From: Candidatus Saccharimonadota bacterium
GTDB taxonomy: Bacteria; Patescibacteriota; Saccharimonadia; Saccharimonadales; OFTM59
Direction of reading: 5' to 3'
Length of the DNA: 64,000 nucleotides
Assembly (NCBI GenBank): GCA_029260855.1
Contig: JAJDCK010000014.1
Location: 6,018-70,017 of the forward strand
The position numbers and the translations under genes are program-made. Position 1 is the first letter of the stretch. The number at the start of each line of letters is the position of its first letter. The notes beneath the pieces are model-generated. The model had not been told where the DNA came from, did no database searches, and saw only the letters and a program-made list of their open reading frames with translations. This document shows positions 2,982-63,302 of this stretch, piece after piece.

Positions 2982-3407
2982 CTACTTCTTTAATTGCATG
3001 TGCGCTTTATCGACCAGCTTAAGTAGCTCGTCGATATTGACGTCAGATAACTTCTTAAAGCTGATACTAGAGCTGCCCAATTTCACCTTGCCGAGTAAGG
3101 CTCCATATTTCTTAACAAGGTATTGACCATCTTCGCTCGCGCTTATATAAACACTAATATAATTTTTTTGTAACGTCAGGCCGACAGCAAACCATTCGAC
3201 CACCTTTTTGTCTGAACGAACATAGACAAGATCGCCAAAGCCAATTATTGACTGTTTGCTACCGCCCCAGAATACGCCCTCCCAGAGCTTCGGGGTAACA
3301 CTGGGCATGTGCTTAGAAATCTGATCATATAGATTGCCAACATCGGCGCGAGCAATGTCATCAAGCGAGGCAAGATAATCAGTGACGGTGCGATCTGTAA
3401 CATTCAT
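2982..3407 (-). CDS. DUF1801 domain protein
   Basis: 141 aa. TDYL...IGFG...Y...W..VGL...NYISVY pattern. TATAAT lies 6 nt upstream of the ATG. Confidence 0.55.
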   Translation of the reverse strand: MNVTDRTVTDYLASLDDIARADVGNLYDQISKHMPSVTPKLWEGVFWGGSKQSIIGFGDLVYVRSDKKVVEWFAVGLTLQKNYISVYISASEDGQYLVKKYGALLGKVKLGSSSISFKKLSDVNIDELLKLVDKAHMQLKK

Positions 3408-3525: not shown

Positions 3526-3942
3526 CTAAGACTCTGGGCTGAAGTCGGGGTTCATCCACACCGGTTCCCACTGGTTGCCGTCGGGGTCAAGCACTTCGTA
3601 TCCGAACATCATTTCTTCGGGCACGCTATAGTCAGCTTTGAAATAATCTCCACCGTTTTGTTTTGCGGTATCGGCGAAGTTTTGAACCTCTTCTTTTGAG
3701 TCGAGCGTTAAGGCTAGTAAGACTGCGCTAGTTTGGACGGTGTCGCTAATGTCCTTCCCTTTCAAAAAATTTTTGTAAAAGTCGTGTTTTAGTAACATTA
3801 CTACTATTTCATTTGACCACATCAACGCGCTGGCATTTTCGTCAGAAAAATCGGAATTTTTTGTAAAACCTAGAGCTGAATAAAACTTAGTTGACTTGTC
3901 CAGATTCTTTACCGGCAAGTTAATATAAATCTGCTTTGACAT
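3526..3942 (-). CDS. VOC/glyoxalase-bleomycin-resistance family protein
   Basis: 138 aa. INLPVKNLDKS..FY..LGF... and ...GY.V.DPDGN.WE are typical. AAGGAG SD present. Confidence 0.7.
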   Translation of the reverse strand: MSKQIYINLPVKNLDKSTKFYSALGFTKNSDFSDENASALMWSNEIVVMLLKHDFYKNFLKGKDISDTVQTSAVLLALTLDSKEEVQNFADTAKQNGGDYFKADYSVPEEMMFGYEVLDPDGNQWEPVWMNPDFSPES

Positions 3943-7273: not shown

Positions 7274-8289
7274 AATTACACAAAAATTCATTAAAGCTGT
7301 CCCTGGTCTATGTTTCGATTATTATGTTTATTAGTTTATTTTTTAGCATATCGCTCTATCGGTTGTCTATAAATGGTCTAGATCGAGGCCTTCGAAGGTC
7401 GCCTGGCGTCCCCCAGGGTATCAGAAGTCAATTGCCGCAAGAAATCCAAGCCGGGCTTGTCAGCGATCGTGAGCAGGCCTTTGAAGAAGCTCGACAGAAT
7501 ATCCTGTCGCAACTTGTTTCAATCAATTTGATGATTCTAGTGTCTGGCAGCCTATTTAGCTATTATTTGGCACTTCGCACGCTCCGTCCGATTGAAAATG
7601 CCAATCAGAATCTTGAGAATTTTACTGCTGATGCGAGCCATGAGCTGCGCACCCCCCTTGCATCGATGAGGTCCGAGATAGAAGTGGCGCTAAGCGATAG
7701 AAAGTTAAGCTTACCAGAAGCCAAATCATTGTTGTCTAGCAATCTAGAAGAAGTTGAAAAGCTAACAAATCTAACACAAGGTTTGCTGCGCCTAGCCCGG
7801 CTCAAACATAACGAAATTCCGATGGAAGACACATCGATCAGCGAACTTATAGATTCTTCAACCAAGGCCATTGAGAAGTCTGCCAAAGCTAAAAAAATTA
7901 AGCTTGAGATCAAAGCTACTTCAGGCTATGTGTCTTGCGAAAAGTCGAGTATTATTGAAGCTATCATGGCCTTGCTCGACAACGCAGTAAAGCATAGTCC
8001 TGTAGGCTCGCCAGTGGGGGTTGTTGCCACGAAGTCCGGGAGCTCACTGGAGATCGGAATAACAGACAATGGCCCGGGTATACGCCCGTCCGAAATACCA
8101 CATATTTTTGATCGCTTTTACCGATCTGATTTATCAAGGTCAAAAGCAGCAGATGACGGCTACGGTCTAGGGCTAGCTATTGCTAAAGACACAGTAGATG
8201 CTCATGGAGCTAGTCTTTCTGTCCAAAGTGAAGTCGGCAAAGGCAGCACCTTTAAAATAACCTTTCCCAAAAACATGATGAAGTTTTGA
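7270..8289 (+). CDS. sensor histidine kinase (HisKA + HATPase_c)
   Basis: 4-nt overlap with the RR. Two N-terminal TM segments. H-box FTADASHELRTPL, N-box LLDNAVKHSP, G-boxes DNGPGI and GYGLGLAI. Confidence 0.9.
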   Translation: MKLHKNSLKLSLVYVSIIMFISLFFSISLYRLSINGLDRGLRRSPGVPQGIRSQLPQEIQAGLVSDREQAFEEARQNILSQLVSINLMILVSGSLFSYYLALRTLRPIENANQNLENFTADASHELRTPLASMRSEIEVALSDRKLSLPEAKSLLSSNLEEVEKLTNLTQGLLRLARLKHNEIPMEDTSISELIDSSTKAIEKSAKAKKIKLEIKATSGYVSCEKSSIIEAIMALLDNAVKHSPVGSPVGVVATKSGSSLEIGITDNGPGIRPSEIPHIFDRFYRSDLSRSKAADDGYGLGLAIAKDTVDAHGASLSVQSEVGKGSTFKITFPKNMMKF

Positions 8290-11349: not shown

Positions 11350-11424
11350 TGGCTCCTGGGGCCGGACTCGAACCGGCAACCCTCTCGTTAACAGCGAGAT
11401 GCTCTACCATTGAGCTACCCAGGA
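11350..11424 (-). tRNA. tRNA-Asn (GTT), CCA encoded
   Basis: Hand-folded cloverleaf: acceptor UCCUGGG/CCCAGGA, D arm GCUC/GAGC, anticodon stem UCUCG/CGAGA with loop CUGUUAA, T arm GCCGG-UUCGAGU-CCGGC. Confidence 0.95.
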
Positions 11425-20615: not shown

Positions 20616-21110
20616 CTAGCTTGCATTCCCAAGCTGTACGGCCTGAGAAGCTTCGGGTGTAGGTTTTTCTTGCAGACTATTGAAAGTAGCTATACGACCC
20701 CCGTAGACAGCTATTCTCACCCGCATTTTAGCGCGCTGGTTTGCCTCTTTTGTTTCGGCTGATGCTTTCCCTTTTGTCAGGTCTTTGTCTCTACTGAGCA
20801 GTCGTTGCATTTCAGGATCCTGGCTTACTGCAGTTTCGGTGTTTTCATCAAAGCGTGCAAGGGCAAGCGCGCCAACTGCTTTGGCTTGTTGCCACGCCCC
20901 CCACAGCGCCTCAATCTTTTCCCTGTTTCCTGGCCTTACTAAGGGCAAAATGCTCTGTGGCTCAGGATGTAGATCAACTTGAACCAGCGCTGATAATAAC
21001 TCTTCCCGTGAAAAGTCTGTAACGGCATAGTCAAGCTCTAATAGGGCCATTGCCTGCTGAGGGGTTGCCCGTTCTTCCGCTATCATTTGTGGCCTTGATT
21101 GCTCCGCCAT
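20616..21110 (-). CDS. hypothetical protein
   Basis: 164-aa ORF. TATAAC lies 6 nt upstream of the ATG. Confidence 0.55.
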   Translation of the reverse strand: MAEQSRPQMIAEERATPQQAMALLELDYAVTDFSREELLSALVQVDLHPEPQSILPLVRPGNREKIEALWGAWQQAKAVGALALARFDENTETAVSQDPEMQRLLSRDKDLTKGKASAETKEANQRAKMRVRIAVYGGRIATFNSLQEKPTPEASQAVQLGNAS

Positions 21111-21165
21111 GCTCTAGTTATACAGAGTATAAATGTTACCGTATGTGATATTTTTCACTCTTGGG

Positions 21166-21405
21166 CTAAACGAGTTTTTTAGCGCGCAGTGCTGAGTCAA
21201 TACGTTCGCGGTCAAAACCTAAAATGACTTCACCGTCTACATCGGTAACTGGCGTAGCAAGCTGGCCAACTGTGTTGGCGACCCAGTCCATAGCTTCTTT
21301 GTCTTGCGTGATGTCACGCTCTTTAAAGGGCAAACCCTTACTCTGTAGGTACGCCTTTACCATATGGCAATATCCGCAAGCGGGGCTAGTGTAAACAGTT
21401 ATCAT
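21166..21405 (-). CDS. glutaredoxin/NrdH-like redoxin
   Basis: 79 aa. ITVYTSPACGYCHMVKAYL (CxxC) and TPV..VDG..I.GF. Confidence 0.85.
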   Translation of the reverse strand: MITVYTSPACGYCHMVKAYLQSKGLPFKERDITQDKEAMDWVANTVGQLATPVTDVDGEVILGFDRERIDSALRAKKLV

Positions 21406-30787: not shown

Positions 30788-31213
30788 GTGGTTCACTTAG
30801 AACTTGTGACATTATCTGGGGTCAAATTTCGGCAACAAGTATATGAAGTACAGCTGCCAACCACAGAAGGAATTATCGGTGTGTTCAAAGACCACTCTCC
30901 GCTTGTGGCTATGGCAGCGCCTGGAGTAATAAAGGTCCGTCATAAGGCTGGCGAGCCCGACGACCTGCAAGATTTTATAGCTACTAACGGCGGGGTTATA
31001 GAAGTTGGCGACGACAATATTCGTGTGCTAGTGGATGAAGCTGACCTGGCAGATGAGATTAACGAGAAAGAAGTCGAAGAGGCTCACGCAAGGGCCCTGA
31101 AACTGCGCTCTGAAGCCAAAGACCAGACATCATTAGACCACGCACAAAGCCTGATTGACCGCTCTTCAGTCAGGTTGCAGGTAGCCAACCTAAAACGTCG
31201 CCGTCGCAAGTAA
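30788..31213 (+). CDS. atpC: ATP synthase subunit epsilon
   Basis: GTG start behind GGAGAGG. LELVT....F...V..V.LPT.EG.IGV...H.PL pattern. Confidence 0.85.
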   Translation: MVHLELVTLSGVKFRQQVYEVQLPTTEGIIGVFKDHSPLVAMAAPGVIKVRHKAGEPDDLQDFIATNGGVIEVGDDNIRVLVDEADLADEINEKEVEEAHARALKLRSEAKDQTSLDHAQSLIDRSSVRLQVANLKRRRRK

Positions 31214-31364: not shown

Positions 31365-31380
31365 TGTGATCATTATCACT
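31365..31380. promoter_or_regulatory. CRP/FNR-family-like operator TGTGA-N6-TCACT
   Basis: TGTGATCATTATCACT, 13-28 nt upstream of the 31393/31408 start codons. A Crp/Fnr regulator is encoded at 36704. Confidence 0.35.
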
Positions 31381-31392
31381 TAGTAACTAAGG

Positions 31393-32361
31393 GTGCGTGA
31401 GGTTTATATGTCTTTTGAAGGTGAAGGAGCTGAAGTGTTGAAAGAAGTCAGGGTGGCGCGAATTTGCGATGGGCTAGGTTTTGGCGAAGGCCCTATATCT
31501 TATAGCGATCGTCTAGATATAGACCAAAGCACACGTGCGCGAGTTGAGGCGCTAATAACTAGCCCCGACATACTTGTAGTAGTAGAAGCTGATGACGATG
31601 GCTGTGGTGATGGTCGAGAGGTGGGCGTGATTCATGAAGGTCAAAAAATCCGTGAGCGCTCCCTGCATCGTGCTAAAGTTTTTGGCGGGGGGGCTACTAT
31701 GGCGGCTGCCTCAGACATCGGCCTGGGGCGCGCACGAAACATGAGTCTTCATAGTGTATTTGATACAGCAAAAGGCACTATCTTTGACGCAGGTCTTAGT
31801 TATGGTGCTCACACCGGTAGTCACGCAGATGATGAACAGAGTGGCTGTGGTGCGGTTGATAAAGCTCCGGTCATTATCGCCATCACTGAACAGTATCATC
31901 AGCAAATTGCTGGCACAATCGCGGCATTAGGGGTTGATACTGCTGGCTTGGAAGGGATTTTTGAAAACTACAAACAATTCGGACGTGATATTCAGGGACA
32001 GGAATATCGGGGGGCTGAGGTTGTTAATGATATAAAACGCGACGGACGAGTCGTAAAAGAGCTGAATGGCGAGCACCTTGAGATGTATATAGTGCTTAAC
32101 AATGTAGAAGGCAAAACAGTTAACCAACAAAAAGTGCGTGAATCTAGTGATGGAAAGGTCCAGGTTTTTGGTATTGATCTTTGGCGATTGATGCAACTCT
32201 CACAAAAGCTCTACCCCGAAGATAGAGGTTTTAGTGATTCCGACCGGCACGTAGCCTTTCTTAGCGAGCTAGTTTATACCTTGTCAACGGCTGCCACGCT
32301 TACAAAGGGGGACCTTCCGGTTTATATGGTTAGCCCAGAAAACGAACTAGTAGCAGTATAG
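31393..32361 (+). CDS. hypothetical protein with GCGDGR and SGCGA motifs (start 31393 GTG or 31408 ATG)
   Basis: 322-aa ORF. No confident family assignment. Confidence 0.7.
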   Translation: MREVYMSFEGEGAEVLKEVRVARICDGLGFGEGPISYSDRLDIDQSTRARVEALITSPDILVVVEADDDGCGDGREVGVIHEGQKIRERSLHRAKVFGGGATMAAASDIGLGRARNMSLHSVFDTAKGTIFDAGLSYGAHTGSHADDEQSGCGAVDKAPVIIAITEQYHQQIAGTIAALGVDTAGLEGIFENYKQFGRDIQGQEYRGAEVVNDIKRDGRVVKELNGEHLEMYIVLNNVEGKTVNQQKVRESSDGKVQVFGIDLWRLMQLSQKLYPEDRGFSDSDRHVAFLSELVYTLSTAATLTKGDLPVYMVSPENELVAV

Positions 32362-36703: not shown

Positions 36704-37372
36704 TTGAAGACATTCCAGGATTTTCTTGAGCAGTACCACGTAAAGACCTTTGCTAAGGGTGAGCTTATACTTGTTCAGGGTGAAGTGCCGCCTTGTGCCT
36801 ATGTGATCAAGAAGGGCGTTATAAAGACCTATAACCTTACCGCAAGAGGTGAGGAAAAGCCTATAACCTATGATGTGGCCACCGAAAGCTTCCCGATCGG
36901 CTGGATTTTCTCTAAGACTGAAGAGTCGTTGTTTTTCTATGACGCTTATACTGATGTTGAGCTGTATTGCGTTCCTCGCGCCGATTATTGCGAATTCTTA
37001 AAGCTAAACGTAGATGTCCTTTACGATGCACACAAATTTTGGATCAACCGTTTGTTGGACATGCAGACAAGAGTCAATGCGCTTGAGCAGTCCAAAGCAT
37101 CGTCTAAGGTTGTCAACACGCTTCACTACCTATGTTTGCGTTACGGCAGAGACATAAAAAAAGATGTAGTCCGTATTGATTTACCACTAACACAGCAAGA
37201 GTTGGCAAACTTTATGGGCCTAACACGTGAAACGACCGGAATCGAACTGAAGAAACTACAAAGAAGCGGTGTCCTAAGCTATAAACGGCAAAATTACATA
37301 GTTAAAACCGATAAACTCAACGACCTGCTTGATGAAGACTATGCTCAAGGAAAGTTGGTGGACGAAACTTAG
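36704..37372 (+). CDS. Crp/Fnr-family transcriptional regulator
   Basis: cNMP-binding-like N-terminus (F.KGE.I..QGE....YVI.KG.IK.Y) and C-terminal HTH (LTQQELANFMGLTRETTGIELKKL). Confidence 0.85.
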   Translation: MKTFQDFLEQYHVKTFAKGELILVQGEVPPCAYVIKKGVIKTYNLTARGEEKPITYDVATESFPIGWIFSKTEESLFFYDAYTDVELYCVPRADYCEFLKLNVDVLYDAHKFWINRLLDMQTRVNALEQSKASSKVVNTLHYLCLRYGRDIKKDVVRIDLPLTQQELANFMGLTRETTGIELKKLQRSGVLSYKRQNYIVKTDKLNDLLDEDYAQGKLVDET

Positions 37373-37399
37373 AACACCCCGCAGAGCGAGGTGTTCTTT
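37372..37399 (+). terminator. intrinsic terminator after the crp-like gene
   Basis: GAACACC-ccgcagagcga-GGTGTTC followed by TTT. Confidence 0.6.
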
Positions 37400-37421
37400 G
37401 GGCTCCTACCTATACTAGGTT

Positions 37422-37571
37422 CTATAAGAGCTGCTGCTTGATACGTCGCCATCTTTTAGCCCGTAGCTTTTCGGCCCTGTGTCCCCAGCCTTGGCCGACA
37501 TCATCGTAAAGTTCTTCAATGCTTAGATCAGATATGCGAATCGGTTGGTGTAGTATTTTATTTCTACCCAT
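37422..37571 (-). CDS. 49-aa basic protein, paralog of 41769..41918
   Basis: GGAGGAGG SD 6 nt before the ATG. MGRNKILHQPIRISDLSIEELYDDVGQGWGHRAEKLRAKRWRRIKQQLL. Collinear with the other copy (Y22, G28-W29, A33-E34, L36-R37-A38, R40-W41, K45). Confidence 0.7.
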   Translation of the reverse strand: MGRNKILHQPIRISDLSIEELYDDVGQGWGHRAEKLRAKRWRRIKQQLL

Positions 37572-37691
37572 AGCACCTCCTCCTGCTTGCGTTATTGGTG
37601 AATAAAGAATAAGCCTACCCCGCATTTAATGCAGCGTGAAAATTCACAATTCGCTTGTTAATATTTACCGAGGCCTACAATTGGACATCGT

Positions 37692-38078
37692 TTAAATTGA
37701 TCGGCTCAAATCCTTGCTCACTAGATGATCTACTACCATAGCCAATTCTTCCGGCTTTGCATGAGCTTTAACGATATACTTATAGGCGCCAAGCGTCATA
37801 GCTTTTTGAACTTTTTTTTCGTCACCCAAGTTGCTTAGTATGACAATAGACACACCAGCGGGCTTGCCCTGCTTATTATATTTCTCCAGGAATTCAATGC
37901 CGCCCATCTCTGGCATGAGTAGATCGAGCAGAATAATCTTTGGCGCTTGTTCGGTAGCCTTTTCAAGCCCCTGCTTACCGTTATAAGCGGTGGATACTTT
38001 GTGGCCATGCCTTTTTAGTATTAGTTTATAGGCATCGCTGAGTAATTTGTCGTCTTCAATGATAAGGATATTTGCCAT
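37692..38078 (-). CDS. single-domain (CheY-like) response regulator
   Basis: MANILIIEDD...DLLMPEMGG...K receiver motifs, 128 aa. Confidence 0.9.
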   Translation of the reverse strand: MANILIIEDDKLLSDAYKLILKRHGHKVSTAYNGKQGLEKATEQAPKIILLDLLMPEMGGIEFLEKYNKQGKPAGVSIVILSNLGDEKKVQKAMTLGAYKYIVKAHAKPEELAMVVDHLVSKDLSRSI

Positions 38079-38121
38079 GTTGCCCCTTCCTTTCTAGACT
38101 ACACTATAATGACATGAGATT

Positions 38122-39291
38122 TTATTGTTGCTGTAAGAATTCATCCATTTGCGCAGGAAGCCCGTCATTATTATTACTCACTGGAATTGAAAAATAAAAT
38201 GTACTGCCCACGTTTTCGCGACTCACAAACCAAACCTTGCCACCCATACCGGTGGCAATGAGCTTTACCATATACAGGCCGAGCCCAGTGCCAAACGTCT
38301 CTTTTTGCATGATATTGCTGGCACGAAAAAACTTACTGAACACACCTGCCTGGCTCTCTTTTGGAATGCCGTAGCCTGTATCACTTATTTTGAGCAGGAT
38401 ATTCTTGTTTCTTTTTGCCAGAGTGACTTGAACGGTCCCCTTCTGAGGGGTGTATTTAATGGCATTGGACAATAAATTTGAGAAAACCTCTGTTAGTAAA
38501 AGTGGATCGGCTGTTACTTGCAAGGGCGCTCGCGGTAGATCCGTCCTCAAACTAATCTTTTTGGCTGCGGCAACTTGAGCAAACTCGTGACTAATAGTGC
38601 TTATGATTTCATTATAATCTATGCTTGAAGAGTTGATTTGGAGCTGCCCAGTTTCGATGCGGGATATGTCAAGAAATGTAGTAATCAGCTCATTCATGCG
38701 ATCAATAGACGACAAGATAACCTTCATGAAATCCCTCTGTGCGCCCGATAGATCCCCCGCATAGCCATCATACAACATTCTGGAGTATGTATTAATGGCG
38801 CTCAAGGGTGTTCGTAGTTGGTGCGAAGCTATAGAAATAAACTCGCTTTTCATGCGGTCTACTTTGTGCTCCTGAGTTATGTCGCGAAAGGTCTCGATAG
38901 CCCCTATGGGTTTACCCTCTTGTAATATAGGTGAAACCGTAGCAAAAACAGGCAGGCGCGGGTTCTTCTTGGTGCGGTAATATATTCGTTCGGAAATAGT
39001 GCGACCGCTTAGAAATGCACGGGTAATGGGGCGATCAATTAGCGGGATAGTTTTATTTTCGTGAGTTACGGCCATAACAACATCAGGGAACCACTTCCCA
39101 AGCGCTTGCTTTTCAGTTAATCCTAAAATATTAAGAGCAGTTTTGTTTATGCGGTATATAACACCATTTTCATCTGTGGCAATAGCCCCCTCCCCCATGC
39201 TCGCAAACAAAGCTTCAGTTTTTGCCCGTTCTTGTACGGCCCGAAGCGTACTATCCTGAAGTTCCTTTAGTAGCTCACTTAAATCAAGCAT
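38122..39291 (-). CDS. PAS-domain histidine kinase (no TM segments)
   Basis: PAS-like N-terminus, H-box FISIASHQLRTPL, N-box LLSNAIKYTP, DTGYGIP, GTGLGLYM. Confidence 0.9.
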   Translation of the reverse strand: MLDLSELLKELQDSTLRAVQERAKTEALFASMGEGAIATDENGVIYRINKTALNILGLTEKQALGKWFPDVVMAVTHENKTIPLIDRPITRAFLSGRTISERIYYRTKKNPRLPVFATVSPILQEGKPIGAIETFRDITQEHKVDRMKSEFISIASHQLRTPLSAINTYSRMLYDGYAGDLSGAQRDFMKVILSSIDRMNELITTFLDISRIETGQLQINSSSIDYNEIISTISHEFAQVAAAKKISLRTDLPRAPLQVTADPLLLTEVFSNLLSNAIKYTPQKGTVQVTLAKRNKNILLKISDTGYGIPKESQAGVFSKFFRASNIMQKETFGTGLGLYMVKLIATGMGGKVWFVSRENVGSTFYFSIPVSNNNDGLPAQMDEFLQQQ

Positions 39292-39303
39292 GCCTTTTTG
39301 TGC

Positions 39304-40413
39304 CTACTTTCCCGATGCCTTTGGAGGCCGTTTTGTCCCGCCTCCCTCCTCTATGATATCTGCCAGAATAGCGTTTATCTTGCTTGTTGCATCATTCATT
39401 TGCGCTTGTAGGTCTTTGCGCAATTCCATGTTGCGTAATGCCTGGAACTTGGCTTGGTTGAGTTCGCCTGCTTGCTTTATAACAGCTTTCTCAGAGCGAA
39501 TGCGACCGTACACAGCAACAGAAAGCACTAAAGCGGTTAGCATGATAATTAGCAAAAAGAAATGTAATGCGAAAAGATTATGCGCAGCTACCCCGCTATA
39601 TACATAAGGTCCCGTACCGACAAGCGTTCCCCAAATGGCTGCAAGCGCTATAACCATACCTGCGGTAACCGCGCCAATTTGCGTAAAACGCACTGCGGCC
39701 AAAATAATCAATGGGAAAAGAACGTAGATAAACGGCAGGGTCGAACCTAGAGATTGTGGTGGTTGTGTGAATATAAGCAGGCTGACCATTATTACTATGA
39801 GCAGCAGCGCCAGCGCTTCGTAAACGTGCTCAAACAGCCCCTCCCGATACGCTGGTGTACGCCAAGCAACTATAAATGGCACGATTAGAAAAGCGCCCAT
39901 AAGGTCTCCTACCCACCATGTAGTCCAGGCTTCACCTATGCTATATGAGGGCACCACACCACCCAGTACCAAACTACTCACCCCTATAGTTGCCGCAACT
40001 ATAGAGCTCAGGAGAGGCGCTACGACAACGAAGACGACAGACCCAGTAATCGATTCCAGGATTTCGCCATTGAGGATATAGCGCCTAATGAGAAAAACGG
40101 CTGTTACTGCCTCAAGCGTGTTGCCTAGCGCGATGCCTGTCGCGACAGAAGGCGAGACGCCCATTAATGAGTTAATCATAAATGCTCCCACGAAAATGCT
40201 AGGCCAATAGTGGTAGCCCCACAGCAACAACGCCGCCATAGCTATACCGCTCGGAGGCCAGACTGCAGTTATATAATCAAAATTTTGAGAGAGTGAAAGC
40301 CCAAGCTTAGCTGCCAGCATATAGACTACCGATAACAGCAGTAGTTTTATAAGATAAGGCCGCACCCCCTCTTCTTTAATAGCACGTTCAAAGCCAGCAA
40401 GAGTAGAATCCAT
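39304..40413 (-). CDS. MASE1-domain integral membrane sensor module with C-terminal coiled coil
   Basis: 8 TM. Typical MASE1 start YMLAAKLGL.L......ITAVWPPSGIA.AALLLWG...WP.IF.GAF. Same reading frame as the downstream kinase, separated by TAG plus 4 codons. Confidence 0.8.
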   Translation of the reverse strand: MDSTLAGFERAIKEEGVRPYLIKLLLLSVVYMLAAKLGLSLSQNFDYITAVWPPSGIAMAALLLWGYHYWPSIFVGAFMINSLMGVSPSVATGIALGNTLEAVTAVFLIRRYILNGEILESITGSVVFVVVAPLLSSIVAATIGVSSLVLGGVVPSYSIGEAWTTWWVGDLMGAFLIVPFIVAWRTPAYREGLFEHVYEALALLLIVIMVSLLIFTQPPQSLGSTLPFIYVLFPLIILAAVRFTQIGAVTAGMVIALAAIWGTLVGTGPYVYSGVAAHNLFALHFFLLIIMLTALVLSVAVYGRIRSEKAVIKQAGELNQAKFQALRNMELRKDLQAQMNDATSKINAILADIIEEGGGTKRPPKASGK

Positions 40414-40418
40414 CCTAC

Positions 40419-40673
40419 TTATACCCCTTCATTATTAGCAAGGTTCATCAGGCGACTGACATAGTTGCTTACAAGTTGCTTATCATTTGTTAAAAGCGCC
40501 ATTGATACCCTGCTCCAGGCTGCCAAGGTCTTTAGGTCTTTTTTGGTCAGTTCATCTGGCGATTTGTTGAGGTGGCTGTCAATTTGTCTGTCCACGAATC
40601 GGCGCGCAGCAGGACCAAGATAGTCGGCTGTGACTGCAAGTACGTCCTCGTATAGTGGGTTAATATTCACCAT
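40419..40673 (-). CDS. 84-aa hypothetical protein
   Basis: ORF tightly packed (2-5 nt gaps) between the membrane protein and the MASE1 gene. Confidence 0.6.
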   Translation of the reverse strand: MVNINPLYEDVLAVTADYLGPAARRFVDRQIDSHLNKSPDELTKKDLKTLAAWSRVSMALLTNDKQLVSNYVSRLMNLANNEGV

Positions 40674-40675
40674 AC

Positions 40676-41632
40676 CTAAACTTCCTCGATCTTCTTAAGC
40701 TTCTCGGACCCCTTTGCGATGAACCCGTAACCGATAGCGATAAATACTAAGAGGCAGTAGATTATTGCTAGAAGATACTGAAGCGTCCATGCTTCAACAA
40801 TAGTGTTAAGGGATAACATATAACGCACGGTTGCGCGCGACAAAACGATGAACACTACACCGCTCACAAAATAGGTCAAAGCCTTTCTGTAGACAATACC
40901 CTGCACGCTTTTTTTGTACAGATTTATAAAGTAGGCCGCGTAAAGTCCCATGTACCAAATCAGTAAATAAGGTATGACCACTGTAAATAATAGCAAATAG
41001 TCGGGTAAATAATAAGCTGCGCGCTCGCCTGCGGCTGCCGGAAACTGGCGCACCGGATTGGTAAAAGTTAGATATACATAAGATGTGCCGATCAATGTCA
41101 TTCCTATCATCACTACATATGCGGGCGTTGCCTTCGCTTTGCCGTCCACTATACTTAGTAAGCTACGTGCACCGTTGTAAATAAGCCACACTGCAACCAG
41201 TCCAACTATAATATCTATATAGTTGAAGACTATCGTACTGGTGGCAGCAAGTTGCGGCTGGGTGTCTTGGACAAAGCTCATTAGTCTGTTGCCTATAGCC
41301 CTTAAAGGGAGTCCCAGGGCTAGCACAAAAAGTCCATTAGCGATTGTTGATAAGGACTGCCCGTGCCTACTTTTGTTTATGGCTTGAGAATAATTTTTTA
41401 GTCTTACAGAACCAAAGCAGGCAATAAACCAAATAGCGATATAGGGTAAAATTATTGAAAGCCTTAGATTACGCGCTTCAAGAGGAGCGAGGTCATAGCG
41501 CGTCAATGCGTCCGAACTAGTGGGCATCCAAAAGATAAGGGCAATGTAAGCTAAAGCAAGAATTCCGAACAGCACATAAGCTTGCTCGGGTTTGATCTTT
41601 ATCAACATGTTTCTCCGCAACATCTTAGACAA
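40676..41632 (-). CDS. polytopic (about 8 TM) membrane protein, hypothetical
   Basis: 318-aa ORF. TATAAT lies 8 nt upstream of TTG 41632. Alternative ATGs at 41623 and 41608. Confidence 0.7.
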   Translation of the reverse strand: MSKMLRRNMLIKIKPEQAYVLFGILALAYIALIFWMPTSSDALTRYDLAPLEARNLRLSIILPYIAIWFIACFGSVRLKNYSQAINKSRHGQSLSTIANGLFVLALGLPLRAIGNRLMSFVQDTQPQLAATSTIVFNYIDIIVGLVAVWLIYNGARSLLSIVDGKAKATPAYVVMIGMTLIGTSYVYLTFTNPVRQFPAAAGERAAYYLPDYLLLFTVVIPYLLIWYMGLYAAYFINLYKKSVQGIVYRKALTYFVSGVVFIVLSRATVRYMLSLNTIVEAWTLQYLLAIIYCLLVFIAIGYGFIAKGSEKLKKIEEV

Positions 41633-41768
41633 CTCCGAAAATTATAGTATGAAACTTTCAGCAGGGCTAGCAGTACATGGCCAAATACGAAAGTTAACAG
41701 CTGGCTAGTCTTTGCCGTTAGCCCTAACATGCCTGTACGACTGCCGTAACAACATAATGGCGCGTAAG

Positions 41769-41918
41769 CTATCCGCGCTTTCGTTTTAGCTGCTTCCACC
41801 TGCGGGCTCGTAGATTTTCTGCTTTTGCTTCCCAGCCTGAAGCTAAGCTTTCATAGAATTTATCAAAACCTAAACCTGCAACGGCTGCAGATTTATAAAC
41901 GACCCTGCTTTTGTGCAT
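41769..41918 (-). CDS. 49-aa basic protein, paralog of 37422..37571 (not in ORF track)
   Basis: Own translation: GGAGG SD 7 nt before the ATG. MHKSRVVYKSAAVAGLGFDKFYESLASGWEAKAENLRARRWKQLKRKRG-TAG. Confidence 0.65.
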   Translation of the reverse strand: MHKSRVVYKSAAVAGLGFDKFYESLASGWEAKAENLRARRWKQLKRKRG

Positions 41919-42002
41919 ACTGTTTCCTCCGTATAATCTCTAGCCATAAATATAATGGAGGCGAGGTCTTCGTACAGTGAGTTTTCTCGCAAACCTTGAA
42001 GC

Positions 42003-47333: not shown

Positions 47334-47408
47334 TGGCTGGGGCGGTAGGATTCGAACCTACGAATGCCAGTACCAAAAACTGGTGCCTTACCACTTGGCC
47401 ACGCCCCA
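47334..47408 (-). tRNA. tRNA-Gln (TTG), CCA encoded
   Basis: Hand fold: acceptor UGGGGCG/CGCCCCA (U1-A72 as in bacterial tRNA-Gln), anticodon stem CCAGU/ACUGG with loop UUUUGGU, T arm GUAGG-UUCGAAU-CCUAC. Confidence 0.93.
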
Positions 47409-63083: not shown

Positions 63084-63302
63084 TGGTATCCCTTTGTAAG
63101 TTCATTTGTGGCAACTATCGACCTGTAGTTGACTCGTTAGTACCAAAAAAGCTTCTTGTTACCAAGAAGCTTTTTAAAGAGTGCTTAAAAACAAAATAAT
63201 AAGTTTTTTCGCACCTAGGCGACTTTATCAAGGTTTCCCCGTCGCTGTCTTTGGTAACTTTTAAAGTCTAACAGATTAAACATGCTCAGTCAACTGGTTG
63301 GA
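63084..63302 (-). promoter_or_regulatory. rplJ leader with an internal intrinsic terminator (attenuator-like)
   Basis: Minus-strand RNA AAAAAGCUUCUUG-GUAA-CAAGAAGCUUUUUU (63145-63175), about 60 nt before the rplJ ATG. Upstream GUUACCAA can pair with UUGGUAAC at the hairpin apex. Confidence 0.45.

Follow-up and report, generated by a model that had tools for sequence, protein, structure and literature searches.

A family of small basic proteins in Saccharibacteria associated with CRP-type promoter boxes and Crp/Fnr-family regulators

Two small genes and the protein family to which they belong

The stretch of DNA analysed here (64,000 nucleotides of contig JAJDCK010000014.1 from a Candidatus Saccharimonadota bacterium, referred to as the window) contains two genes for very small basic proteins, which we call sA and sB, S being the label used here for the family of approximately 50-residue basic proteins that includes them both. 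Between the two copies lie five further genes, also on the minus strand, encoding a membrane protein, an 84-amino-acid (aa) protein, a MASE1 protein, a PAS kinase and a receiver-only response regulator, as had been described in the initial annotation of this DNA. That annotation did not mention a Crp/Fnr-family gene lying tail-to-tail with sA, nor a CRP-type box before both copies, and it is these features which were found to be conserved across the family. The two small genes are:

37422..37571, minus strand: sA, small basic protein gene of 49 codons plus stop, MGRNKILHQPIRISDLSIEELYDDVGQGWGHRAEKLRAKRWRRIKQQLL (from translation; family hidden Markov model E=4e-22)
41769..41918, minus strand: sB, small basic protein gene of 49 codons plus stop, heading the gene cluster, MHKSRVVYKSAAVAGLGFDKFYESLASGWEAKAENLRARRWKQLKRKRG (from translation; family hidden Markov model E=4e-18)

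The initial annotation had proposed two 49-codon open reading frames (ORFs) with strong Shine-Dalgarno sequences, and both were present where it had placed them, with exactly the sequences it had given and on the minus strand (translation of the plus strand at these coordinates encountered many stops, while the minus strand gave both 49-residue sequences). The Shine-Dalgarno sequence of sA is GGAGGAGG, 5 nt before the start (plus strand cctcctcc at 37576-37583), and that of sB is GGAGG (plus strand cctcc at 41926-41930). The proposal that they are a paralogous pair which aligns without gaps was also borne out, with 13 of 47 positions identical (28%) and 33 of 47 positive, and in a tblastn search of the whole window sA and sB recovered each other with E=1.8e-9, the next match being at E=0.34, and no third copy was found. 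The ORF track used for the initial annotation was indeed faulty at both genes, as it gave sA as a 67-aa ORF (37422..37625) starting from an upstream ATG, and sB appears only if the cutoff is lowered to 40 aa; the 49-aa start is preferred for sA because of the family alignment and the position of the Shine-Dalgarno sequence. The description of the genes as unannotated holds for that ORF track only, since both exact sequences are already public, without names, in an NCBI assembly and in Logan. No plasmid match was obtained for positions 37300-42000 by megablast against plasmids.

Word-indexed protein searches with each copy, or with the family alignment, recovered only near-identical or very few sequences, none of them named, and so an exhaustive profile search was required. 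This search, across 1.84 billion representatives, yielded 147 cluster representatives at E≤1e-3, nearly all of 45-75 aa, with the consensus M-K-K-x-K-I-L-x-K-P-t-r-l-S-D-L-s-F-D-D-L-Y-e-d-I-S-x-d-W-e-x-K-A-e-R-L-Q-A-R-R-W-R-K-L-K-x-Q, in which L36, R39/R40 and W41 are near-invariant. Homologues with a conserved core (W..KA..L.ARRW) were found, so that the lack of homologues on which the initial annotation would have given up its proposal did not apply. Nor did its other ground, a non-coding pattern of substitution: for the DNA of 38 homologues the proportion of synonymous differences (pS) was 0.5-0.99, which is near saturation, compared to non-synonymous differences of 0.04-0.25, giving a ratio of non-synonymous to synonymous change (dN/dS) of 0.03-0.23 where this could be computed. 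Variability was greatest at third codon positions, then first, then second, and a GGAGG-type Shine-Dalgarno sequence precedes the aligned start in almost all loci. S is a conserved, selected and translated-looking small-protein family, and a clear example of a conserved small protein under strong selection that is hidden by a 60-aa ORF cutoff. One locus (L024) carries two tandem copies (3203-3382 and 3647-3811) that are 67% identical with a dN/dS of approximately 0.09, a further and independent duplication.

Neither sA nor sB matched anything in Pfam-A, NCBIfam, PHROGs or PADLOC, in keeping with the initial annotation, which had not recognised the family, and 143 members searched against Pfam and NCBIfam gave only scattered single matches near E=0.003-0.01. 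A phage or defence origin for S was rejected on the absence of matches in PHROGs and PADLOC. A profile search of the PDB returned nothing at E≤10, and Foldseek comparison of the S model with the PDB gave a single match at E=5.7, which is not meaningful. No source searched gives the family a name, its cluster members being nameless, and no paper on it was found in the literature on Saccharibacteria regulation or small proteins. Modelling with AlphaFold2, using the family alignment, gave a mean predicted local distance difference test score (pLDDT) of 78.9, in a model whose N-terminal tail is extended and is followed by a short helix (residues 18-26) and a long one (residues 29-48, pLDDT above 90). 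Read along the chain, the prediction runs from a short tail at the N-terminus through an acidic-aromatic helix (F-D-D-L-Y-E-D-I) to a long amphipathic helix rich in Arg and Trp (W..KA..LqARRWRKlK).

The distribution of S was surveyed in one genome for each of 185,579 species with a tight 17-sequence alignment (two broader alignments being too diverse for the purpose), in a scan that was limited to members with [RKQ]LQARRWRK and so left out motif variants and the genome of the window itself. Of the 35 confirmed S loci that resulted, 33 were in assemblies labelled Candidatus Saccharibacteria, Saccharimonadales or Patescibacteria, the other two being labelled Chlamydiae (L037) and only "uncultured bacterium". 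S appears to be restricted to Saccharibacteria (Patescibacteria), and the proteins encoded around the window copies are 50-62% identical to their counterparts in Saccharibacteria assemblies, where the gene order is the same, which makes a Saccharibacterium the very probable source of the window. The S ORF of the Chlamydiae-labelled assembly is intact (L037, 6001-6153) and represents either a binning error or a rare case outside Patescibacteria.

CRP-type boxes upstream of S genes

Alignment of the regions upstream of S revealed a palindrome of CRP type (for example TGTGAGAATTCTCACA in locus L011). A generic sigma-70 scan did not flag the S promoters, which were visible only through this comparison of upstream regions. 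Both window copies have such a box and, downstream of it, a predicted -10 hexamer:

37633..37648, minus strand: sA CRP-type box, TGTGAATTTTCACGCT, 7/10 (left half-site perfect, right half-site degenerate)
37606..37611, minus strand: sA predicted -10 hexamer, TATTCT, 21 nt downstream of the box
41976..41991, minus strand: sB CRP-type box, TGCGAGAAAACTCACT, 8/10
41949..41954, minus strand: sB predicted -10 hexamer, TATATT, 21 nt downstream of the box

When the textbook CRP consensus TGTGA-N6-TCACA was sought within 160 nt upstream of each gene, using the other ORFs of the same loci as controls, a box of at least 8/10 was found for 32 of 38 S genes compared to 24 of 358 other ORFs, and a box of at least 9/10 for 17 of the 38 compared to 7 of the 358. 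More than half of all the boxes of at least 9/10 in 430 kb sit in the 5.5 kb upstream of S (binomial P ~2e-29). A position weight matrix trained without the window, and applied to all positions of the 64 kb, ranked the sB site second (16.2 bits) and the sA site sixth (10.9 bits), and the three loci which were fetched after the motif had been defined had boxes of 10/10, 9/10 and 8/10.

Of the 25 promoters in which the box is proximal, 24 had TAnnnT 21-22 nt past it, the distance being exactly 21 nt in 21 of them (approximately 8% expected, P ~2e-25), and this 21-nt spacing is shared by both window copies. Taking the hexamer as the predicted -10 element, the centre of the box would fall at -41.5, over a poor -35 region. 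A box centred at -41.5 and overlapping the -35 is the geometry of class II CRP/FNR promoters, such as galP1 with E. coli CRP, and if the predicted -10 is right then the S promoters would have this same geometry. They have in common with that class the TGTGA-N6-TCACA palindrome and the 21 nt to TAnnnT, a distance that would put the box centre at about -41.5 and over the poor -35. They differ from it in that many S loci have a second box, approximately 22 bp farther upstream, and in that AGCATAAGC follows the box. We considered reading the sA box as GTG-N6-CAC with shortened spacing, and rejected this as the 21-nt distance to the -10 fits the normal 16-nt frame. The conserved AGCATAAGC lies directly 3' of the box in many loci (for example L010, 5941-5949) and is retained even where the left half-site of the proximal box has been lost (L017, L019, L020 and L023).

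Boxes also occur ahead of genes other than S. In L009, which lacks S before the membrane-protein gene, a 21-bit box lies directly ahead of the membrane-protein gene itself, and the Crp-like gene of that locus carries a box of its own. Strong boxes were also found between S and pentose-phosphate genes, either shared with those genes or ahead of them (L019 5874, L028 5865, L031 2274, L041 4702 and L043 11253). Within the window, the strongest box (TGTGATATTTTTCACT, 21144-21159, 17.6 bits) lies just downstream of a glutaredoxin gene (21166-21405, minus strand) and approximately 40 nt ahead of a 164-aa ORF (20616-21110, minus strand) that matches no family, and it may mark a further member of the regulon. 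Another window box (TGTGATCATTATCACT, 31365-31380, 14.4 bits) lies right after atpC (30788-31213, plus strand; checked with Pfam) and precedes a 322-aa ORF (31393-32361, plus strand) with a weak match to cadmium-carbonic-anhydrase repeats; this position after atpC, with a box in the window, is the one held by S in seven other genomes.

Genomic contexts of S and its linkage to Crp/Fnr-family genes

The genes and features surrounding sA and sB in the window, in the order from sB to the Crp/Fnr-family gene, are:

40676-41632, minus strand: 318-aa multi-pass membrane protein, without a Pfam, NCBIfam or PADLOC match, kept with the cluster in 9 loci
40419-40673, minus strand: 84-aa protein, without a Pfam, NCBIfam or PADLOC match, kept with the cluster in 9 loci
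39304-40413, minus strand: MASE1 membrane sensor-domain protein with no output domain, an insertion particular to the lineage
38122-39291, minus strand: PAS-HisKA-HATPase histidine kinase
37692-38078, minus strand: receiver-only (CheY-like) response regulator (Pfam Response_reg, E=5e-23)
37371-37397, unstranded: GC-rich hairpin of 12 bp lying between sA and the Crp-like gene, whose 3' ends converge there
36704-37372, plus strand: Crp/Fnr-family regulator of 222 aa, tail-to-tail with sA (Pfam cNMP_binding, HTH_Crp_2 and Crp)

The hairpin has a fold energy of -23.2 kcal/mol (z=-3.4), which none of 200 shuffles equalled, and it is a probable bidirectional terminator; the spacer between sB and the membrane-protein gene has no significant RNA structure (z=0.0). 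Upstream of sB is an MscS channel gene, and an AddA-like helicase-nuclease gene follows the Crp-like gene, which is the only Crp-family gene of the window. The 318-aa and 84-aa proteins together are probably the sensory input of the PAS kinase/receiver two-component system. The MASE1 gene was found between the 84-aa and kinase genes only in the lineage of the window (L001), the kinase following directly after the 84-aa gene in other loci, and a 367-aa gene without a Pfam record on the P0005 contig may be another MASE1.

Comparison of the window proteins with all loci, and clustering of all neighbouring ORFs, showed that S occurs in five kinds of context. (a) S is followed by the membrane protein, 84-aa, PAS kinase and receiver genes, with a convergent Crp-like gene and AddA, in approximately 11 of 41 loci; S stands before the membrane protein in L008, L010-13, L025 and L029 and after the receiver in L009, and in the window both of these positions are occupied. 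(b) S is directly convergent on the Crp orthologue (L002-7, L027, L042 and the P0005 contig). (c) S comes next after atpC, at the end of an ATP synthase operon of the order atpH-A-G-D-C (L015-18, L023, L030 and L040). (d) S is divergent from the genes for 6-phosphogluconolactonase and 6-phosphogluconate dehydrogenase, with a Crp paralogue approximately 1.4 kb away, in six loci (checked with Pfam). (e) A Crp-family gene directly adjoins S, either in tandem or divergently (L034-36 and L038). The atpC-linked S genes, at about 6000 in each locus, have their own box and encode an N-terminal extension (MKKYRIKGE..RKH..). In L002 S and the convergent Crp-like gene share 20 nt at their 3' ends (8134-8153), and the same contig, unusually for a Saccharibacterium, bears genes of carotenoid biosynthesis.

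The Crp/Fnr family formed by far the largest cluster of neighbours, being present within 5 kb of S in 21 of 37 loci and on four further independent contigs, approximately 25 of 41 loci in total. A Crp-family gene is the immediate neighbour of S in 12 loci, where it is variously convergent, divergent or in either tandem orientation, and of the distant S members which were fetched later, P0054 and P0096 have a divergent, adjacent Crp-family gene and P0158 has one 3.3 kb away. A soil Saccharibacterium genome has been reported to encode five FNR-family regulators (PMC6031116), and even with this number adjacency of S and a Crp-family gene by chance would be a matter of a few percent. These neighbour counts make the Crp-family gene the partner that recurs, with the kinase cluster as just one of several contexts, and so the link to the signalling cluster proposed in the initial annotation does not hold as a general one. 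Of the co-occurrence with MASE1/PAS kinases which it proposed to examine, that with the PAS-kinase cluster was seen in about a quarter of loci, and MASE1 was found with S only in the window lineage. Genes for superoxide dismutase, glutaredoxin and PNPOx-like and flavodoxin-like proteins recur around S (L002, L036, L045 and L046), and together with the pentose-phosphate boxes they hint at a redox or energy-stress regulon.

The window Crp-like protein has NtcA, CRP and FNR as relatives in the PDB. It has a CRP-like recognition helix (TRET), and the R-E-T start of this helix (R180 and E181 in E. coli CRP) was kept in all 21 of the neighbouring Crp-family proteins, suggesting that these regulators resemble CRP in DNA recognition. 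Like the regulators of class II CRP/FNR promoters they combine a cNMP-binding-like domain with HTH_Crp_2 and the R-E-T helix, but unlike E. coli CRP and FNR they lack both the residues contacting cyclic AMP (cAMP) and the cysteine cluster. In alignment, the equivalents of E72, R82 and S83 of E. coli CRP were not kept (G-E-L...R-S-A being replaced by F-P-I-G-W...S-L-F), and no FNR-type N-terminal cysteine cluster for a [4Fe-4S] centre was found in the 222-aa sequence. The window regulator scored 47 bits against a cut-off of 266 for CRP in NCBIfam, and 38.5 bits against a cut-off of 228 for Fnr, and so it is neither CRP nor FNR in the strict sense.

Possible role of S and alternative explanations

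Taken as a whole, these observations are best explained, at a probability we put at about 0.7, by S proteins being small effectors of Saccharibacteria that are direct targets of a Crp/Fnr-family activator. We infer that the neighbouring Crp-like protein binds the box and activates transcription of S, as the link between regulator and box is supported indirectly by the genomic linkage together with the conserved R-E-T recognition helices. In such a scheme a dimer of the Crp-like protein would bind the palindromic TGTGA-N6-TCACA box through its R-E-T recognition helix and, with the box placed approximately 41.5 bp upstream of the predicted start and over the poor -35, would recruit RNA polymerase in a class II manner. 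Transcription from the sB box would cover sB and, through read-through, continue into the membrane-protein, 84-aa, MASE1, PAS-kinase and receiver genes as a putative operon, and sA would be expressed from its own weaker box, ending at the hairpin that it has in common with the convergent Crp-like gene. S would thus be induced when the regulator is active, and would bind a negatively charged partner via its Arg/Trp-rich helix.

Several points weigh against this interpretation. The P values given above overstate the independence of the loci, which are related phylogenetically, and the -41.5 placement depends on a -10 element that is predicted. The right half-site of the sA box is degenerate (7/10), 6 of the 38 S genes do not have a box of at least 8/10, and approximately 40% of loci lack any Crp-family gene at a distance of up to 5 kb. 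Neither cAMP-contact residues nor an FNR-type cysteine cluster are present in the Crp-like proteins to point to an inducing signal, and, as soil Saccharibacteria can carry approximately five FNR-family regulators (PMC6031116), the box may be bound by a regulator other than the adjacent one. Finally, S showed no homology to ribosome modulation factor, RMF (by hhalign) or to any solved structure (by PDB profile search and Foldseek).

The predicted Arg/Trp-rich helix suggests binding to RNA or the ribosome, a membrane or a protein, and the prediction of a long basic helix is compatible with the idea, raised in the initial annotation, that the C-terminus binds nucleic acid or a membrane surface. 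The rmf gene is activated by cAMP-CRP on starvation and its product is a translational down-shift factor, making RMF the best functional analogy for a small basic effector induced by CRP, and by this analogy our best guess for the partner of S is RNA or the ribosome, with a protein (the regulator or receiver) or the membrane/ATP synthase as close alternatives. RMF (PF04957, Gammaproteobacteria) is like S a basic, two-helix protein of approximately 55 aa belonging to one lineage; it differs in having its basic helix at the N-terminus, where that of S is C-terminal, and in having no acidic-aromatic segment such as is present in S. Homology to RMF was rejected, with an hhalign probability of 0.1% against E. 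coli RMF and no match to the Pfam RMF family. A more far-reaching version would have a Crp/Fnr switch specific to Saccharibacteria, with S as its main conserved output and as a new class of small effector through which these ultra-small episymbionts shut down or re-tune the ribosome, ATP synthase or the regulator itself on an energy, redox or host-related signal; this is speculative and we consider it doubtful.

Of the other explanations, the one to which we give the most weight, although we think it unlikely, is that S is a protein-binding modulator of the neighbouring signalling proteins, giving feedback on the Crp-like regulator or acting as the output partner of the receiver-only regulator; in one variant the acidic-hydrophobic N-terminal motif would dock on the receiver in the way that peptides of FliM and CheZ do on CheY. 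S does immediately adjoin a Crp-family gene in those 12 loci, in four orientations, but this adjacency is already accounted for by local regulation via the box, and S retains its box where no regulator or receiver is nearby, as after the ATP synthase operon. In the window and in L009 the S gene in the sA position is next to the receiver-only regulator, whereas only about one locus in four has a receiver gene together with S. The conserved S-D-L-S-F-D-D-L-Y-E-D-I would form an acidic amphipathic helix, and there is precedent for a small protein regulating CRP in SpfP, a 15-aa protein encoded by the Spot 42 RNA that binds E. coli CRP (PMC8916003). SpfP resembles S in being a very small protein tied functionally to a Crp-family regulator, and differs from it in size and sequence and in being encoded inside a small RNA, and binding of S to a regulator is hypothetical.

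Somewhat less probable again is that S tunes energy conservation by binding to the F-type ATP synthase or to the surface of the membrane, as a functional analogue of small inhibitor proteins such as cyanobacterial AtpTheta or mitochondrial IF1. Arg/Trp-rich amphipathic helices commonly bind anionic membranes, which counts in favour of this, as does the gene for a multi-pass membrane protein that follows S in the sB position. S lies directly after atpC in the seven loci of context (c), and the strong window box at 31365-31380 is in the same place; however, those seven loci look like one clade with conserved synteny, and so may reflect a single event, and S there has its own box and promoter and is not part of the atp operon. 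AtpTheta (encoded by atpT) is an inhibitor of the cyanobacterial ATP synthase that is induced under unfavourable energy conditions, and like S it is an amphipathic protein of approximately 48 aa from one lineage, often with two diverged copies per genome; it is also soluble and stress-induced, which favours the comparison (10.1101/2021.07.30.454416). Set against S by description, AtpTheta is reported only from cyanobacteria, has the opposite layout (an N-terminal amphipathic helix and a disordered C-terminus) and has no link to a Crp box, and for S a link to the atp operon is confined to a single group of loci.

That the ORFs serve as upstream regulatory ORFs or encode leader peptides for the operon downstream, or have arisen by chance within a leader that is conserved but non-coding, is very improbable and was rejected on dN/dS and the free-standing contexts, since despite their shortness and the position of sB approximately 136 nt upstream of the membrane-protein gene (a leader-like position which S also has in six other loci) there is strong purifying selection on the amino acids with saturated synonymous sites, the same protein stands free in many unrelated contexts, no gene separates sA from the terminator that follows it, the operon box is present in L009 with no S ahead of the operon, and the 147 divergent representatives keep their length and motif.

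Returning to S as a set of targets of a Crp/Fnr-family activator, the regulatory architecture involved is a known one (the Crp/Fnr class II promoter), while the S protein family is new to every library searched. Saccharibacteria, and Patescibacteria more widely, have tiny genomes with few regulators and almost no experimentally characterised regulation, and here sequence is enough to recognise the family of the regulator, its binding site, the promoter geometry and the most conserved target. That target of approximately 50 residues, which has no description in family databases, gives a testable entry into sensing and response in Saccharibacteria, a few of which are now culturable and genetically manipulable. 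If S is indeed the output of a Crp/Fnr switch, this would be the first regulon of the Candidate Phyla Radiation to be readable straight from sequence.

Rfam gave nothing at the sA and sB loci, and its matches in the window were only two tRNAs and an L10 leader, all of them ordinary RNAs: the L10 leader is at 63136-63272 (minus strand, 55 bits), and the tRNA-Asn and tRNA-Gln genes are at 11350-11424 and 47334-47408 (both minus strand).

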